UHGV virus genome: UHGV-0213571
Source: a virus
DNA: 39,653 bases
Reading direction: 5' to 3' (one strand)
Shown: piece by piece, positions 2,394 through 36,992 of the stretch
How the letters are laid out: the number at the start of each line of letters is the position of its first letter
How positions within the stretch are numbered: the stretch's first letter is position 1
The notes under the pieces: model-generated
Databases searched by the model: none
What the model was told of the DNA's origin: nothing
What the model saw: the letters and a program-made list of their open reading frames with translations, nothing else
Translations under genes and position numbers: made by a program

Positions 2394-2834
2394 ATGAAAA
2401 AACTAACCTTTGAAATTCGATCTCCAGCACATCAGCAAAACGCTATTCACGCAGTACAGCAAATCCTTCCAGACCCAACCAAACCAATCGTAGTAACCAT
2501 TCAGGAACGCAACCGCAGCTTAGACCAGAATCGAAAGCTTTGGGCTTGCCTTGGTGACGTCTCTCGTCAGGTTGAATGGCATGGTCGCTGGCTGGATGCA
2601 GAAAGCTGGAAGTGTGTGTTTACCGCAGCATTAAAGCAGCAGGACGTTGTTCCTAACCTTGCCGGGAATGGCTTTGTGGTAATAGGCCAGTCAACCAGCA
2701 GGATGCGTGTAAGCGAATTTGCGGAGCTATTAGAGCTTATACAGGCATTCGGTACAGAGCGTGGCGTTAAGTGGTCAGACGAAGCGCGACTGGCTCTGGA
2801 GTGGAAAGCGAGATGGGGAGATCGGGCTGCATGA
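2394..2834 (+). CDS. ninB: NinB recombination protein (Orf family)
   Basis: Product MKKLTFEIRSPAHQQNAI... recognised as lambda NinB-like; first gene of nin block after the terminator. Confidence 0.8.
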   Translation: MKKLTFEIRSPAHQQNAIHAVQQILPDPTKPIVVTIQERNRSLDQNRKLWACLGDVSRQVEWHGRWLDAESWKCVFTAALKQQDVVPNLAGNGFVVIGQSTSRMRVSEFAELLELIQAFGTERGVKWSDEARLALEWKARWGDRAA

Positions 2835-3358
2835 CTATCAAATCAAATACGCCGGCACACGACAAGGACTGCTGGCAAACGCCGCTCTGGCTTTTTGATG
2901 CGCTGGATATTGAGTTTGGATTCTGGCTGGATTCAGCTGCGAGCGACAAAAACGCTCTGTGCGCTCACTGGCTAACTGAGGCTGACGACGCGCTAAATTC
3001 TGAGTGGATAAGCCACGGTGCAATCTGGAATAACCCACCGTACAGCAATATCAGGCCGTGGGTGGAAAAAGCCGCTGAGCAGTGCATACAACAGCGACAG
3101 ACGGTAGTGATGCTTGTGCCAGAGGATATGTCTGTCGGATGGTTCAGCAAGGCTCTGGAGAGTGTTGACGAAGTTCGCATCATCACTGATGGACGGATTA
3201 ATTTTATCGAACCATCGACAGGGCTGGAGAAGAAGGGAAACAGCAAAGGCTCAATGTTGCTGATTTGGCGACCGTTCATCAGTCCTCGACGGATGTTTAC
3301 TACCGTATCCAAAGCGGCATTGATGGCGATCGGGCTGGGCGTCAGGAGGGCTGCATGA
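2831..3358 (+). CDS. Phage-type DNA N6-adenine methyltransferase (Dam-like)
   Basis: Product contains NPPY catalytic motif ([11 protein letters not shown]) typical of N6-adenine MTases; ATGA overlap with ninB stop. Confidence 0.75.
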
Positions 3359-3531
3359 GGCGACAGCGACGAAGTATCACCGACATAATCTGTGAAAACT
3401 GCAAATACCTTCCAACGAAACGCTCCAGAAATAAACGCAAGCCAATCCCAAAAGAATCTGACGTAAAAACCTTCAACTACACGGCTCACCTGTGGGATAT
3501 CCGGTGGCTAAGACATCGTGCGAGGAAATGA
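3355..3531 (+). CDS. ninE: NinE-like small protein
   Basis: 58-aa product [40 protein letters not shown]... recognised as lambda NinE-like; AGGAGG RBS upstream; ATGA overlap with upstream stop. Confidence 0.55.
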
Positions 3532-3533
3532 CG

Positions 3534-4538
3534 ATGACTGCGTATTACAACGAAATAGATCCGTATGCAGCGCAATGGCTGCGTAACTTAATTGACGCTG
3601 GAGAAATTGCCCCCGGTTATGTAGATGAAAGGAGTATTGAAGATGTCACACCAGGTGATTTGCGAGGATTTACCCAGCACCACTTTTTTGCAGGAATCGG
3701 AGTTTGGAGCTATGCACTTAGAAAAGCAGGATGGCCAGACAACAAGAGTATCTGGACAGGAAGTTGCCCATGCCAACCTTTCAGCTCGGCAGGCAAAGGA
3801 AAAGGGGTTGATGACGAGCGGCACTTATGGCCGGCATTCTTCTGGCTTATTGAAAAATGCAATCCTGGCATCGTTATTGGCGAACAGGTTGCAAGCGCAG
3901 ACGGCCTCGCTTGGCTCGACCTTGTACAAACTGACTTGGAAGGTGCGAACTACACCTCTGCAGGTACCGATATTTGCGCTGCGGGCTTCGGTTCTCCGCA
4001 CATCAGGCAGCGATTGTATTGGGTGGCCTACTCCAACGACAAATATCAACTTTCAGCCAGAGACGCGCAGGGGAATTCAGAACCTATCTGGATGCGTGAG
4101 ACTAGCGGGATGGCAAACTCCTTTAGCGAACGATGCAACAGGTTCAACGCATTGCTACAGCGGAAAAGACAAGAGCGGAACCCCAAGAATCTGCTTGAAA
4201 CTTCCCGGGACGGTGAAGCTATGTACCCATTACCGGTTAACGGCTTCTGGAGAGATGCAGACTGGCTTTACTGTAGAGATGAAAAATATCGTCCAGTTAG
4301 ACCCGGCTCATTCCCGATGGTTAATGGCATTGCCAAAAGCTTGGGACGAGGCAAGTCCACACTGGGAAGAATGGCAAAGCGCAATCAAGATCAGCGAATT
4401 ATTGGATATGGAAACGCAATCAATGCAGAAGTAGCAACGGCATTCGTGAAAGTTTGTATGGAGGTTGTTAATGCTTATCCCATCCCAATCCCTTCAATAC
4501 CAGAAAGAAAGCGTCGAGCGGGCTTTAACGTGCGCTAA
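3534..4538 (+). CDS. DNA cytosine-5 methyltransferase (Dcm-like, orphan)
   Basis: Motif I-like FAGIGVWS and motif IV PCQPFSSAGKGKG (catalytic Cys in PCQ); no adjacent restriction endonuclease gene visible; start could also be 3528. Confidence 0.7.
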   Translation: MTAYYNEIDPYAAQWLRNLIDAGEIAPGYVDERSIEDVTPGDLRGFTQHHFFAGIGVWSYALRKAGWPDNKSIWTGSCPCQPFSSAGKGKGVDDERHLWPAFFWLIEKCNPGIVIGEQVASADGLAWLDLVQTDLEGANYTSAGTDICAAGFGSPHIRQRLYWVAYSNDKYQLSARDAQGNSEPIWMRETSGMANSFSERCNRFNALLQRKRQERNPKNLLETSRDGEAMYPLPVNGFWRDADWLYCRDEKYRPVRPGSFPMVNGIAKSLGRGKSTLGRMAKRNQDQRIIGYGNAINAEVATAFVKVCMEVVNAYPIPIPSIPERKRRAGFNVR

Positions 4539-4647
4539 CTGCGGTCAGAAGCTGCATGTGCTGGAAGTTCACGTGTGTGAGCACTGCTGCGCAGAACTGA
4601 TGAGCGATCCGAATAGCTCAATGTACGAGGAAGAAGACGATGGCTAA
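4471..4647 (+). CDS. ninF: NinF-like small zinc-binding protein
   Basis: Product ...[46 protein letters not shown]... recognised as lambda NinF-like; GGAGG RBS 6 nt upstream of ATG 4471; overlaps 3' end of the C5-MTase ORF in another frame. Confidence 0.6.
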
Positions 4648-5251
4648 ACCAGCGCGAAGACGATGTAAAAACGATGAATGTCGGGAATGGTTTCACCCTG
4701 CATTCGCTAATCAGTGGTGGTGCTCTCCAGAGTGTGGAACCAAGATAGCACTCGAACGACGAAGTAAAGAACGCGAAAAAGCGGAAAAAGCAGCAGAGAA
4801 GAAACGACGACGAGAGGATCAGAAACAGAAAGATAAACTTAAGATTCGAAAACTCGCCTTAAAGCCCCGCAGTTACTGGATTAAACAAGCCCAACAAGCC
4901 GTAAACGCCTTCATCAGAGAAAGAGACCGCGACTTACCATGTATCTCGTGCGGAACGCTCACGTCTGCTCAGTGGGATGCCGGCCATTACCGGACAACTG
5001 CTGCGGCACCTCAACTCCGATTTGATGAACGCAATATTCACAAGCAATGCGTGGTGTGCAACCAGCACAAAAGCGGAAATCTCGTTCCGTATCGCGTCGA
5101 ACTGATTAGCCGCATCGGGCAGGAAGCAGTAGACGAAATCGAATCAAACCATAACCGCCATCGCTGGACTATCGAAGAGTGCAAGGCGATCAAGGCAGAG
5201 TACCAACAGAAACTCAAAGACCTGCGAAATAGCAGAAGTGAGGCCGCATGA
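4640..5251 (+). CDS. ninG: NinG (Rap) recombination-associated endonuclease
   Basis: 203-aa Cys-rich product recognised as lambda NinG/Rap-like. Confidence 0.8.
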
Positions 5252-26367: not shown

Positions 26368-27528
26368 TCAGTACACCTCTTTCCACGAATGCTGGAATAT
26401 TGTCTCGTATGGATAGAATAAATCAGGGTGATTATTAAATCCATATATCAGTCTTGAAATTAAATACAAAACAATAACGCTGTAAATTATAAATATTCCA
26501 GCATTCTTCCTAAACCTATAAAGAACAGATGAAACAAGAAATATCTCTGATGCAGAGTAATACATTGCTAATCTGCTAAAAACAGGATGAACAGAATCAA
26601 GCAACATAAACATTATTGAACTAAACGCAAACAGATTAAACATACCTCTTATGGTACGACCTTCATCATCGTTACGCATTCCATAAGTCGCCCATGCAAA
26701 AACAACAACGAATAATATTCTCTTAGCGTATCCTATTGCTCTTCTTACCTCGCTAGGAATCTCACTAAATGCGTTTAAATCTTGAAGAGCTAGATATCTA
26801 GTTATTTTCATGCTAATAAAAGACGGAAGATAACTTGTCATCAAGCCAAGTATATTGGCAGCGCCAAAAAGCATTGATATTATAGCGGCAATGCAAGTTA
26901 TTAATATTATCCTACTAATACTTGATTTCATTTTGAAAATCAAGTAAGCAGGGATAAACACTAACGCTGTTATATGAAAACCGGATGCAACAATAACGCA
27001 AAAGATAAACTTTGCTTTTGATTGTTCATTTTGTGTTATATATCTAAGTGAAAATATCGTTATCGCTATAGCTATTCCTTGCCTGACTGTAAACATATCC
27101 ATTGAATAAAAGGCCATTGATGCCAATATACATATAAGAGGATACCTTGAAATTTTAAAAAATGTTGAATACTTTAACACAACAACTATTGTTGCTATTA
27201 TAAATAGATAAATTGTGTAAGAGTCATATATATATTTTGATATGAAATTAACAAGAAGAAATAATGTCTCATATCCTTGAGACATGAAAATTTCAAAATT
27301 ATCACTATATGAGAATATATTAAGGTATGGCTCCCAGTCAGTACCTGTTCTCCATCTTATTCCGGCAAATATTATTGTTAATATTCCTATAAATGTAGCG
27401 ATTATTTTTTTATACACAATAGGAGTTTTTAATAAATCGCATGTTGCAACAAAAGAAGCAAATAAGAAGAATAAATAGTATATCATATTTATCACGGTTG
27501 TTATTAAGTTGGGTCCGGATTGTACCAC
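26368..27528 (-). CDS. Polytopic membrane protein, putative O-antigen polymerase (Wzy/EpsG family) — candidate serotype-conversion gene
   Basis: 386 aa, about 10 hydrophobic segments, AT-rich; N-terminal R-x-x-TGTDW-x-x-Y motif (IRWRTGTDWEPYLNIF) resembles EpsG/Wzy signature; sits in the tailspike-int conversion slot; alternative start at 27486. Confidence 0.55.
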   Translation of the reverse strand: MVQSGPNLITTVINMIYYLFFLFASFVATCDLLKTPIVYKKIIATFIGILTIIFAGIRWRTGTDWEPYLNIFSYSDNFEIFMSQGYETLFLLVNFISKYIYDSYTIYLFIIATIVVVLKYSTFFKISRYPLICILASMAFYSMDMFTVRQGIAIAITIFSLRYITQNEQSKAKFIFCVIVASGFHITALVFIPAYLIFKMKSSISRIILITCIAAIISMLFGAANILGLMTSYLPSFISMKITRYLALQDLNAFSEIPSEVRRAIGYAKRILFVVVFAWATYGMRNDDEGRTIRGMFNLFAFSSIMFMLLDSVHPVFSRLAMYYSASEIFLVSSVLYRFRKNAGIFIIYSVIVLYLISRLIYGFNNHPDLFYPYETIFQHSWKEVY

Positions 27529-31337: not shown

Positions 31338-31769
31338 CTACTCACCTCCGTTGATGCGAATGCCAGCGGCACGGGAATCATTCCATCGCTTTACTTCTTC
31401 ACGAATTACGTCAATGCATTCTTTCGAATCCATTAGGTAATCTTCATCAAAAAGCCTTTCCTGTTCGTTTTCTATCGCAACAATGATTGCTTCAACTAAC
31501 TTTTGTGCCTGAGAACCACTTTCTAACTCTGCAATGCGCTTCTCTGCGGCTTCCAGCGCATTTACCAGATCATCAACGGTTCCAGCCGCTTGGCGTGCGT
31601 AATCTGTAATTGCCAGCTCGCATTCAATTTCAGTTCCGTTTTCGTTGGTGTGGCAAATAGCAAAGTAATCGGAGTCGATTTCGTTATCAGCCAAACTCCT
31701 AAGCGTGTCGGCAACCAGCACTCCGTTTTCAATCAGCATCTCTGTTGCGCGTTTGTCGATGTTGCTCAT
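31338..31769 (-). CDS. Hypothetical acidic protein (Ead/Ea22-like module)
   Basis: 143 aa; shares LEAAEKRIAELE coiled-coil motif and a 20-bp identical stretch with the next gene. Confidence 0.55.
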   Translation of the reverse strand: MSNIDKRATEMLIENGVLVADTLRSLADNEIDSDYFAICHTNENGTEIECELAITDYARQAAGTVDDLVNALEAAEKRIAELESGSQAQKLVEAIIVAIENEQERLFDEDYLMDSKECIDVIREEVKRWNDSRAAGIRINGGE

Positions 31770-32629
31770 TGCGCGGCCTCCTGGCGGTCTATGCGTTCAA
31801 TTTCGGCCAGAATAAGTGCGCCAGCTTTCACAAGGTCACGACGCGGCCCAGATTGCTTCCACCAATCAGGAGCCCACGGCCAATGCGCTGGCGTTGAGAA
31901 GCCTTGATTGTGTGCGCTAATCGCATAGCAAGCTGCAGCATCTGCCAGCTCACCGTTTTGATAGGCGTCGTCATGCTCCGATGTCCAACCCTCAACAGCC
32001 CTCTGCCGCTGACGTTCTGATATCACATCCAGAAGTGCAGGATTGAACGCCAGCACCTCCAGTTCAGCAATCCGCTTCTCTGCGGCTTCCAGCTTCTCGC
32101 GCATATCGTCAACGTACTCGACCAGAGATCCGCCAGCAGGAATTTCGCATTCCTCGACCAGTTGGAAGTAGATATCAGCTGCGGCCCGTGTGTTGCTATG
32201 CCTAGCGTCGCCCATCTCACCTTCACGAAGAGCATCGCGTTCGGCGGTAAGATTGGCTATTTTGCTGTCTTTGCCTTCCAGCTCAACGCGCAGCCTCCCA
32301 ACCGTAAGCGCAATATCCTCGTTCTCCTGATCGCGGCGTTTGATGTATTGCTGGTTTCTTTCCCGTTCATCCAGCAGTGCCAGCACGGTAGCTGGACTGG
32401 CTGCGGCGATGAATTCAGCATTGGCCTGCTGTTCCATTTGGAAATCTTCATCGAAACCGCTTTCTGGATGCGCTCCTTCAATTCTGCAAATGGGAATATA
32501 TCCAGCAGCCTCGCGATGAATTAGTGCATCATCACCATCAAATCGGCCCTCTCCATATTCGAGCGACCACACACCACTCGTTGCTTTCTCTGCCTTTTCA
32601 CGCAGTGCCTGATAGTCAATCTTGCTCAC
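31766..32629 (-). CDS. Ead/Ea22-like protein
   Basis: 287 aa acidic coiled-coil protein in the int-proximal early region, as for lambda ea22. Confidence 0.55.
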   Translation of the reverse strand: MSKIDYQALREKAEKATSGVWSLEYGEGRFDGDDALIHREAAGYIPICRIEGAHPESGFDEDFQMEQQANAEFIAAASPATVLALLDERERNQQYIKRRDQENEDIALTVGRLRVELEGKDSKIANLTAERDALREGEMGDARHSNTRAAADIYFQLVEECEIPAGGSLVEYVDDMREKLEAAEKRIAELEVLAFNPALLDVISERQRQRAVEGWTSEHDDAYQNGELADAAACYAISAHNQGFSTPAHWPWAPDWWKQSGPRRDLVKAGALILAEIERIDRQEAAQ

Positions 32630-33273
32630 TGGTTACCTCCTTTGCGAAGCTCTGCGGCGAACTCGTTAAGTGATATGTAGCAATCTCCAAATGTTAACGA
32701 ACCGCTCGACTGCATATGCTCCATAGCCATCTCCACACCCTGCGCACGTACTTCAGCCAGAAAAGTGTCGGTGGCTGGGGTTTCGATATTAGGTAGAAGC
32801 GCATAATCGCAAATCGTATCGATCGCAGGATCACAACAGTCATCCTCGTTGCGTGGTCGTTCGCCAACCTTCGTTGACGATTGCATGATGATTCCCCAGC
32901 AAATACTATCGACCTCTTCGCTCCATCCATCGCAAGCATCACCGCGATAGTCGTCGATTGCAGCCTCAGCCGATTCGATAGCTTCCTCAGCAGTTTTGTG
33001 CCATTCGAAATTATGCTCAGAGCCATATGAGAAATATGAATGTCCCGCCTTCAGCCCAGCATTCTCCGCTGCCAGCGCCACGCACTTGGCCTCAAGGTTA
33101 TCAATCGTGATTCCAGCAGAACGACACTCCCGCAACGCCGTTTCCAGTTTTGATTCAAGTTCACCGAACTTACGGACAAGATATTCAGCGTTTGTTTCGT
33201 TAACCTTTAAATCACTTGGGATGCATTTACCTTTCAGAAATCCATCCATCTCAATTAGTGTCATTTGTTTCAT
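32626..33273 (-). CDS. Hypothetical protein (Ea-region)
   Basis: ORF track 32626..33291; start [11 protein letters not shown] at 33273 preferred because it is translationally coupled (ATGA) to an upstream small ORF. Confidence 0.5.
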
Positions 33274-33434
33274 TTTTTTCCACTCCGCCACATCGCATTC
33301 AGATATTTGTTTTGATTCACTGATGGAAAAGAATTTCTCTTAAGCAATTCCTCTCTCGATGGCATTGGCTTTACGCGTTGGCGAATAATCATTTCTGCCG
33401 GAAGAATGCCGGGATTGTATGCAAGTCCTCTCAT
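33270..33434 (-). CDS. Small hypothetical protein (about 53 aa), translationally coupled on both sides
   Basis: ATG at 33434 overlaps stop of upstream gene (ATGA); its stop overlaps ATG of downstream gene; below ORF-track size cutoff. Confidence 0.3.
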
Positions 33435-36521: not shown

Positions 36522-36992
36522 CTAATAAAACACCCAGTTTTCTGTTTCTTGGTTGTGTCCAAAGTTATATTCAATATCTGGTGTTGATGTATCAATATTC
36601 TTCATCCCATCAACAAGAGTTGATACAACAGCCAAATCTTGTTTGATTCTCATTAAATGGTATTTCTTCCGGCGCAATAAACTTTCAATGGCAAGTTTCT
36701 TCGTTGGGAATGCAAAAGATCTTTCTGCATTTTTTGCTACTTTCTTAATTGCATATCTATTTCTCTTTTGTTTCCATTCCTGTAACCACTGATTTGGTGC
36801 TGGTTTAAAATTAACAATCCAATGCGCAGGAACCAACCATGCATAATGCTCTGTCTGATGAAAAGCTATATATTGAAGTGCGAATATTTTGATTCCATCT
36901 TCTTCAACTGTCGCCTGGAATCTCCAGAAAACAGGCATTCCATCATGTTCAGTTTCTGATTCAGGAAAAGGTACGCTCCATGATTTTGTCAT
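36522..36992 (-). CDS. Hypothetical protein, AT-rich moron between N and cIII
   Basis: 156-aa ORF, visibly lower GC than neighbours, followed by 9-bp-stem hairpin (36480-36507) and the terminator. Confidence 0.5.
   Translation of the reverse strand: MTKSWSVPFPESETEHDGMPVFWRFQATVEEDGIKIFALQYIAFHQTEHYAWLVPAHWIVNFKPAPNQWLQEWKQKRNRYAIKKVAKNAERSFAFPTKKLAIESLLRRKKYHLMRIKQDLAVVSTLVDGMKNIDTSTPDIEYNFGHNQETENWVFY

Follow-up and report, generated by a model that had tools for sequence, protein, structure and literature searches.

C5-cytosine DNA methyltransferases (C5 methylases) can be assembled from two chains instead of one, and two enzymes of this kind come nearest to the gene considered here, a C5-methylase gene in the nin region of the virus genome UHGV-0213571 (39,653 nucleotides (nt); this whole stretch is referred to below as the window). 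M.AquI (Karreman & de Waard 1990) is described in PMC5944983 as naturally split between motif VIII and the recognition domain, and C5-methylase fragments divided at that point are stated there to complement efficiently. In M.EcoHK31I (Lee, Kam & Shaw 1995), as outlined in PMC2836561, the beta chain is encoded wholly within the alpha gene in a different frame, alpha holds motifs I–VIII together with X, beta contains motif IX, and methylation requires both chains. The window presents a similar layout, with a second open reading frame (ORF) nested in the C5-methylase gene on the same strand and in another frame. We use “alpha” for the annotated C5 frame and “beta” for the ORF nested in its +1 frame:

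3528-4538, + strand: C5-cytosine methyltransferase ORF (alpha), 336 amino acids here and 316 in relatives; its ATG overlaps the ninE stop (ATGA)
3643-4434, + strand: nested ORF (beta), 263 codons, in the +1 frame of alpha and wholly inside 3528-4538; unannotated by PGAP

Across diverse phages, both frames are kept open and under purifying selection, as a mosaic of alpha-only, dual and beta-dominant stretches. The reading we favor, to which we assign a probability of roughly 0.6, is that the window carries two orphan phage methylases, one an ordinary Dam enzyme and the other a two-subunit, dual-coding C5 methylase resembling M.EcoHK31I. Within this reading, beta probably encodes the DNA-recognition subunit of the C5 enzyme.

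The comparison with the two described enzymes also brings out differences. The nested subunit of M.EcoHK31I is a small chain of ~176 amino acids, whereas beta is much larger, with 263 amino acids here and up to ~340 in relatives. The alpha chain of M.EcoHK31I is reported to hold the recognition domain, whereas in the window repeat modules are found in beta and the stretch of alpha from motif VIII to motif X contains no conserved domain. M.EcoHK31I is part of a Type II restriction-modification system, whereas the window gene is located in a phage nin region as an orphan, with no restriction partner detected. Also unlike in M.EcoHK31I, motif I is displaced in alpha, and a very large phage family conserves the arrangement. 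These features, together with the extension of a large beta over the catalytic motifs, would set the window gene apart from M.EcoHK31I. The two genes of M.AquI lie in tandem, and both motif IX and motif X are on its second chain. The reading proposed here shares with M.AquI a two-polypeptide C5 methylase in which the recognition part that follows motif VIII would sit on a second chain; unlike in M.AquI, the second ORF lies inside the first, and alpha keeps motif X.

A long conserved ORF in the +1 frame of alpha

Beta spans ~78% of alpha, catalytic motifs IV–VIII included. It was first noticed as a 269-codon +1 ORF at 3625-4434, whose upstream in-frame ATG at 3625 is not conserved. Among 82 relatives from IMG/VR, the +1 frame is open over 235–348 codons in 80, while the +2 frame contains 10–27 stops. 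At ~70–75% nt identity, there are 321–348 open codons in the +1 frame and 13–22 stops in the +2 frame of epsilon15, Burkholderia phage BcepC6B and Erwinia phage 59, and the beta frame is also open in K1ind2, a Xanthomonas phage and Rhodobacter phage RcPutin.

Two comparisons led us to reject chance or composition as the reason why the +1 ORF is open. In control genes (12 other window genes and E. coli dcm), open stretches in the +1 frame reach 52–122 codons, versus 269 here. We also shuffled alpha genes by permuting synonymous codons while keeping the alpha protein and its codon usage fixed, using 60 representatives below 90% identity. The shuffles predict 5.3 +1-frame stops per gene, whereas all 60 representatives have none, an outcome with a probability of ~0.001 for each gene. 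A sequencing frameshift or a pseudogene is ruled out in turn, since both frames are intact in 80 of the 82 independent relatives.

The start region of beta carries its own signals within alpha codons:

3629-3634, + strand: AAGGAG, a Shine-Dalgarno-like sequence located 8 nt upstream of the beta ATG and written in the alpha codons GAA-AGG-AGT (Glu-Arg-Ser)

The GGAG core is retained in 51 of 57 representatives through the choice of AGG or CGG followed by AGY codons. The beta ATG at 3643 is formed by the alpha codons for Asp39-Val40 (GAT-GTx), and the aspartate codon is GAT and not GAC in 56 of the 57.

Constraint on the two frames

Diversity at conserved fourfold sites of alpha follows the limits of the nested ORF. 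It stands at 0.57 upstream of the beta ATG and 0.46 over the N-terminal tail of beta, drops to 0.23 over motifs IV–VIII and 0.20 in the C-terminal overlap, and is 0.55 past the beta stop. Within the overlap, synonymous variation in alpha is thus cut by half, starting near residue 76, and it returns directly beyond the end of beta. Third-position diversity in alpha is 0.4–0.5 on either side of the overlap, ~0.25–0.3 across motifs IV–VIII and 0.5–0.56 at motif X.

With the middle of the gene aligned on the beta frame, variability is highest at the third position of beta (0.62–0.63), and the third position of alpha, which is the second of beta, ranks with the least variable ones; the selected frame there is therefore beta. 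In the linker of alpha (residues 172-237), codon position 1 of alpha, equivalent to position 3 of beta, is the most variable, and the linker is nevertheless free of stops in 47 of 47 genes, versus 2.65 stops expected when synonymous codons of beta are resampled. The dominant frame can change over short distances, as the alpha element GFWRDADW is alpha-dominated and the adjacent segment LDPAHSRWLMALPKAW is beta-dominated. In total, constraint in two frames extends over ~790 nt, and ~90 of the codons concerned also specify catalytic motifs IV–VIII.

Alpha: catalytic motifs and predicted fold

Alpha contains the following elements:

3684-3701, + strand: motif I, FFAGIG (FAGIG at 3687-3701, residues 54-58)
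3768-3776, + strand: motif IV, PCQ (in SCPCQPFS), with catalytic Cys82; invariant in alignments and aligned to the PCQ of M.HhaI
3879-3890, + strand: motif VI, GEQV, a family-wide variant of ENV; Glu119 invariant
3996-4013, + strand: motif VIII, PHIRQR; Arg160 and Arg162 invariant
4041-4238, + strand: linker, residues 172-237, low-complexity, poorly conserved and predicted disordered (AlphaFold2 (AF2) predicted local distance difference test score (pLDDT) ~25)
4242-4316, + strand: conserved element GFWRDADWLYCRDEKYRPVRPGSFP (GFWRDADW...FP), with invariant alignment columns; alpha is the dominant frame over WRDADW
4407-4421, + strand: motif X, YGNAI (in YGNAINAEVA); Y294, G295, N296 and A297 invariant

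The protein matches PF00145 with an E value of 7.7e-14 and 52.3 bits (gathering cutoff 22) over model positions 64-198 only, i.e., the core from motif IV to motif VIII. It scores 42 against a cutoff of 100.65 for the NCBIfam model TIGR00675, in an alignment that begins at model position 25, and it matches phrog_363 (E value 6.5e-92). More than 8000 alpha homologs were found, and those named by their source are mostly called DNA cytosine methyltransferase. The AF2 core of alpha is moderately confident and resembles M.HhaI, M.HaeIII and DNMT-family structures over ~170 columns (E value 2e-8). The first-pass annotation had placed a C5-cytosine methylase with PCQ and FxGxG motifs after ninE, and this assignment is confirmed by the PF00145 match and by the motifs at 3768-3776 and 3687-3701. 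Its description as a simple single ORF does not hold, as the conserved +1 ORF is nested inside.

With the canonical monomeric C5 methylases of PF00145 (M.HhaI, M.HaeIII, E. coli Dcm), alpha shares the PCQ, the motif VI glutamate, the motif VIII arginines, FxGxG and a GN-type motif X, and its large-domain fold agrees with theirs. Unlike these enzymes, it has no in-frame recognition domain or motif IX, and motif I lies behind motifs II and III; E. coli dcm, for its part, has no long +1 ORF. The motif sequence along alpha is II, III, I, IV, VI, VIII, X. In the profile alignments to TIGR00675 and M.HhaI, motif I with its helix (HFFAGIG...ALRKAG) is not N-terminal, being placed after motif II-like (YYNEID...WLRN) and motif III-like (IEDV) segments and directly before motif IV. 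Residues 41-66 were aligned to residues 7-32 of M.HhaI by a profile hidden Markov model, in a sub-alignment that is not significant on its own. Across residues 5-70 (3540-3740), the order of motifs does not correspond to the circular permutation known from M.BssHII-type enzymes. Between motifs VIII and X, alpha includes just the unconserved disordered linker and one short conserved element, and neither the alignments nor the AF2 model contain a folded recognition domain or a motif IX in this interval.

Beta: repeat modules, a motif IX-like block and distribution

The beta product begins with an unconstrained N-terminal tail of ~45 residues, followed by the dual-constrained region ANLSARQAKE...GSTLYKLTWK...LRASVxRTS over the catalytic motifs of alpha. 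Downstream, it includes the following:

4021-4035, + strand: GWPTP, module 1; G127-P131 invariant or nearly so in beta alignments
4108-4122, + strand: GWQTP, module 2, from beta alignments
4297-4344, + strand: LDPAHSRWLMALPKAW, the most conserved block of beta; diversity at codon positions 1, 2 and 3 is 0.14, 0.13 and 0.30

The window beta has two GWxTP modules, whereas relatives carry 3–6, which are gained and lost as whole units. The C-terminal end of beta reads RLTASGEM...QLNPAHSRWLMGLPxxW, and LDPAHSRWLMALPKAW has the spacing of C5-methylase motif IX (LTPxExxRLQGFPxxF), a likeness of pattern and spacing only.

Homologs of beta are widespread. The protein matches phrog_1008 and phrog_31772, both labelled DNA methyltransferase (E values 3e-23 and 2e-18), and at least 4998 database homologs were obtained; no Pfam domain occurs in any of the 120 listed, and the few names given read “hypothetical”. 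The C-terminal half matches 3195 representative clusters. With tblastn, beta was detected in 243 phage records, nearly always beneath an annotated C5 methylase or methyltransferase gene, with hosts that include Escherichia, Klebsiella, Salmonella, Rhodobacter, Burkholderia, Xanthomonas, Pseudomonas, Erwinia, Edwardsiella and Vibrio. Alpha is the only ORF called by PGAP and in most phage records, and annotation of both ORFs is sporadic. Phage K1ind2 (L085) has a “C-specific methylase” and a “Mte8-like protein” at 1065-1994 and 1153-1950 (ORF29 and ORF28), and Xanthomonas phage PhiXhv-28 (L086) has two “DNA methyltransferase” coding sequences at 1089-2081 and 1171-2076. No functional information was found for the “Mte8-like” label of the nested K1ind2 ORF, and the origin of the name could not be traced. 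In the literature searched, which did not extend to REBASE, we found no description of a nested ORF in phage C5 methylases.

Some beta-like proteins depart from the common layout. P0337 has a cysteine-rich insertion of ~200 residues, P0379 has a long unrelated C-terminal extension, and in P0371 an alpha-like N-terminus (through GEQV) is in frame with a beta-like C-terminus, with ~175 unrelated residues in between. Among the ten longest of the 150 best representative matches, P0371 is the only one with PF00145 in frame, atypically arranged, and this set yielded no canonical ancestor joining beta and a C5 core in a single frame.

A two-subunit enzyme and competing explanations

Under the two-subunit reading, alpha and beta would both be translated from the same late-early transcript. 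Alpha would supply cofactor binding and catalysis, and beta would associate with it, adding the DNA-recognition part and motif IX to give an active C5 methylase. The completed enzyme might then methylate phage DNA and shield it from host restriction.

A number of observations weigh against this reading. Translation of beta and its binding to alpha, as well as the division of labor and the target sequence, are points that we infer, and the likeness to M.EcoHK31I is drawn from its description in PMC2836561. Nothing found with HMMER ties beta to motif IX or to a known recognition domain (no match to PDB sequences, and nothing significant or relevant in Pfam), and the hhalign comparison of beta with E. 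coli Dcm is not significant. The structural models are of limited quality, the AF2 model of beta alone being too poor for a fold search (mean pLDDT 42) and that of alpha only moderate (mean pLDDT 51, with residues 172-296 below 50). Beta displays no amino-acid constraint of its own over its first ~45 residues. Two of the 82 relatives (L031 and L073) carry one nonsense codon each in beta with alpha intact, and these could be inactivated copies or metagenome sequencing errors; in one example, a Cys codon TGY in GSTHCYSGK has become TGA. Finally, the window copy of alpha has lost its usual stop codon (see below); this copy may be slightly impaired, or the changed base may be a sequencing error.

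The main competing explanation, which we consider rather unlikely, is that beta is a real, translated and selected protein that is not a methylase subunit, i.e., an overprinted accessory gene with a role such as anti-defense, regulation or DNA binding. It would account for the lack of detectable similarity between beta and any Pfam family or solved structure, those of C5 methylases included, and for the extra inserted or appended domains of members such as P0337 and P0379, and overprinted viral genes are described as often functionally unrelated (PMC8227390). It leaves unexplained why beta nearly always lies beneath a gene annotated as a C5 methylase or methyltransferase, and why alpha has no conserved folded segment at the place of the recognition domain and motif IX while beta offers repeat modules of variable copy number and a block with motif IX spacing. 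The example of M.EcoHK31I likewise argues against it.

The remaining explanations deny beta a separate product. That alpha is a plain single-polypeptide orphan C5 methylase, with the +1 ORF a non-functional by-product of composition or codon usage, agrees with PGAP and most phage annotations, which call alpha alone, and with the retention of all catalytic invariants in alpha. We strongly disfavor it given the zero +1 stops in 60 of 60 representatives where 5.3 are expected, the short +1 open stretches of control genes (at most 122 codons) and the specific synonymous codon choices that uphold the ATG and GGAG. The halving of alpha synonymous diversity in the overlap from about residue 76 (it is only slightly lower over the beta tail), its recovery past the beta stop, and the high variability of the beta third position in the middle of the gene argue in the same direction. 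Least likely of all is a single chimeric polypeptide made by two programmed frameshifts, from the 0 to the +1 frame after motif VIII and back after the motif IX-like block. Frames joined in this way would give the canonical order of motifs I–VIII, recognition domain, IX and X. Against this, the beta frame is open, with a conserved ATG and ribosome-binding site, from ~130 codons upstream of the shift that would be needed, and the alpha linker is kept open, which a frameshifting ribosome would not require. There is also no 0-frame stop to drive the +1 shift, and a canonical -1 slippery heptamer follows the motif IX-like block in only 1 of 58 representatives.

Implications for the wider family

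The alpha/beta family counts thousands of members in databases, from phages of enterobacteria, Pseudomonas, Xanthomonas, Burkholderia and Rhodobacter, among others, and its same-strand overlap covers 260–340 codons across the catalytic motifs themselves. Extended to this scale, the proposal is tentative and, in our estimate, falls a little short of even odds: a large family of “DNA cytosine methyltransferases” in proteobacterial phages and prophages would consist of obligate two-subunit enzymes encoded by one nearly fully nested dual-coding gene, with beta as a new, repeat-built DNA-recognition subunit. If so, the overlap would rank with the longest conserved overlaps between same-strand genes known for double-stranded DNA phages, and annotation as it stands would overlook the specificity subunit. 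The overlap is unusually long and old for such a phage, and it offers a clean natural case of two proteins sharing one sequence. The beta protein, conserved and with thousands of homologs, is either absent from annotation or labelled “hypothetical”. There would be practical consequences as well, as expressing or codon-optimizing alpha alone would destroy beta; codon-optimized alpha genes would be inactive, and the methylase could be wrongly judged inactive or non-specific. If beta carries specificity, the number of GWxTP modules could help predict methylation targets, and hence restriction evasion, in many phages, including therapeutic Kagunavirus and Klebsiella phages.

The C5 cassette and its overlap with ninF

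The first-pass annotation had reported that the C5 ORF overlaps the start of ninF by about 68 nt in another frame and had taken this as a sign of recent insertion. The overlap is present, and its origin is a single-base change in the alpha stop codon:

4476-4478, + strand: TAT where relatives carry the alpha stop TAG (DNA alignment with L004, L011 and L012)

Alpha ends at TAG in these close relatives and in the commonest cluster (P0121, 316 amino acids, 218 member sequences), and the usual alpha–ninF overlap is 8 nt. The 68-nt overlap in the window and the 20 residues added to alpha thus arise because the change from TAG to TAT removed the normal stop; the same change turns residue 3 of NinF from Ser into Ile. 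We therefore rejected the overlap as an insertion scar in favor of this point change, in a cassette that sits in the ninX slot and whose C5–ninF adjacency also occurs in Erwinia phage 59.

The C5 cassette (~3532-4468) occupies the slot that holds ninX in most relatives. Its final 70 nt within the ORF (4469-4538 of the window) onward are not part of the exchange: bases 4469-4538 are common to phages with a ninX–ninF arrangement, which places the right junction at ~4469. Among 5426 complete E. coli genomes, 11 have the ninE–C5–ninF arrangement and 2–3 of these have the Dam and C5 pair. The cassette is rare in E. coli, and its arrangement is no product of chance. The cassette is a case of ordinary lambdoid mosaic module exchange. 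In a prophage of E. coli K56-43-un (L084), the C5 cassette occurs without the Dam gene, with ninB directly followed by ninE, and the two methylase genes are therefore independent modules. The L084 prophage also has a tRNA-Thr gene after Q, whereas the window has no tRNA genes.

The Dam-family gene and the rest of the window

The nin region is tightly coupled, in the order ninB, Dam-family methylase, ninE, C5-methylase ORF, ninF and ninG. Besides alpha and beta, its features are the following:

2394-2834, + strand: ninB (PF05772, E value 1.1e-54); its stop overlaps the Dam start as ATGA
2831-3358, + strand: phage Dam-family N6-adenine DNA methyltransferase, 175 amino acids (PF05869, TIGR01712, phrog_111)
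3032-3043, + strand: NPPY catalytic motif of the Dam enzyme (aac cca ccg tac), in frame with the ATG at 2831
3355-3531, + strand: ninE (PF05322, E value 7e-44), with an ATGA overlap with the Dam gene
4471-4647, + strand: ninF (PF05810), starting 68 nt inside the C5 ORF in another frame
4640-5251: ninG, coupled downstream of ninF

The Dam protein matches PF05869 with an E value of 2.6e-64 and 216.4 bits (cutoff 28.1) over model positions 1-166 of 169, and the NCBIfam equivalog TIGR01712 (phage N-6-adenine-methyltransferase) with 264.2 bits (cutoff 97.05) over positions 1-165 of 165. The same Dam gene is also found between ninB and ninE in VT1-Sakai, Sf101, HK544, phage 434, SfI and hundreds of other records. 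Dam-like methylases of the VT-2 and HP1 phages are cited in PMC7556043, and compared with this phage Dam family (HP1, VT-2) the window protein is a full-length, high-scoring member with NPPY and no notable difference. The gene is an ordinary, already known phage gene, and orphan methylases in the nin region are routine.

Other statements of the first-pass annotation about the two methylases also stand up. The Dam-like N6-adenine methylase with an NPPY motif scores above the cutoffs of both PF05869 and TIGR01712, and the catalytic motifs of both enzymes are intact. Protection of phage DNA from host restriction, which the first-pass annotation expected of dual methylation, is plausible. The absence of a restriction endonuclease partner is likewise supported: Pfam scans identified none among the neighbors NinB, NinE, NinF and NinG or among ten further large ORFs of the window, and PGAP annotates none in a related prophage whose nin region is 98% identical. 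Three minus-strand ORFs of the early-left region (31338-31769, 32626-33291 and 36522-36992; 143–221 amino acids) have no Pfam match, and a cryptic nuclease among them is conceivable.

The window as a whole is a P22-like lambdoid phage or prophage, with a replication gene with iterons, a DnaB-like helicase, the nin region, a Q antiterminator, lysis genes and an integrase, along with P22-type terminase, portal, coat and tailspike genes. About eight copies of the 11-bp unit TTGTCCAACGG, presumably the iterons of the origin, form two clusters at 375-492 within the O-like replication gene (1-891). A gene for an EpsG-family membrane protein (26368-27528, minus strand; E value 1e-45), located between those for the tailspike and the integrase, is likely an O-antigen or surface-polysaccharide gene of lysogenic conversion.

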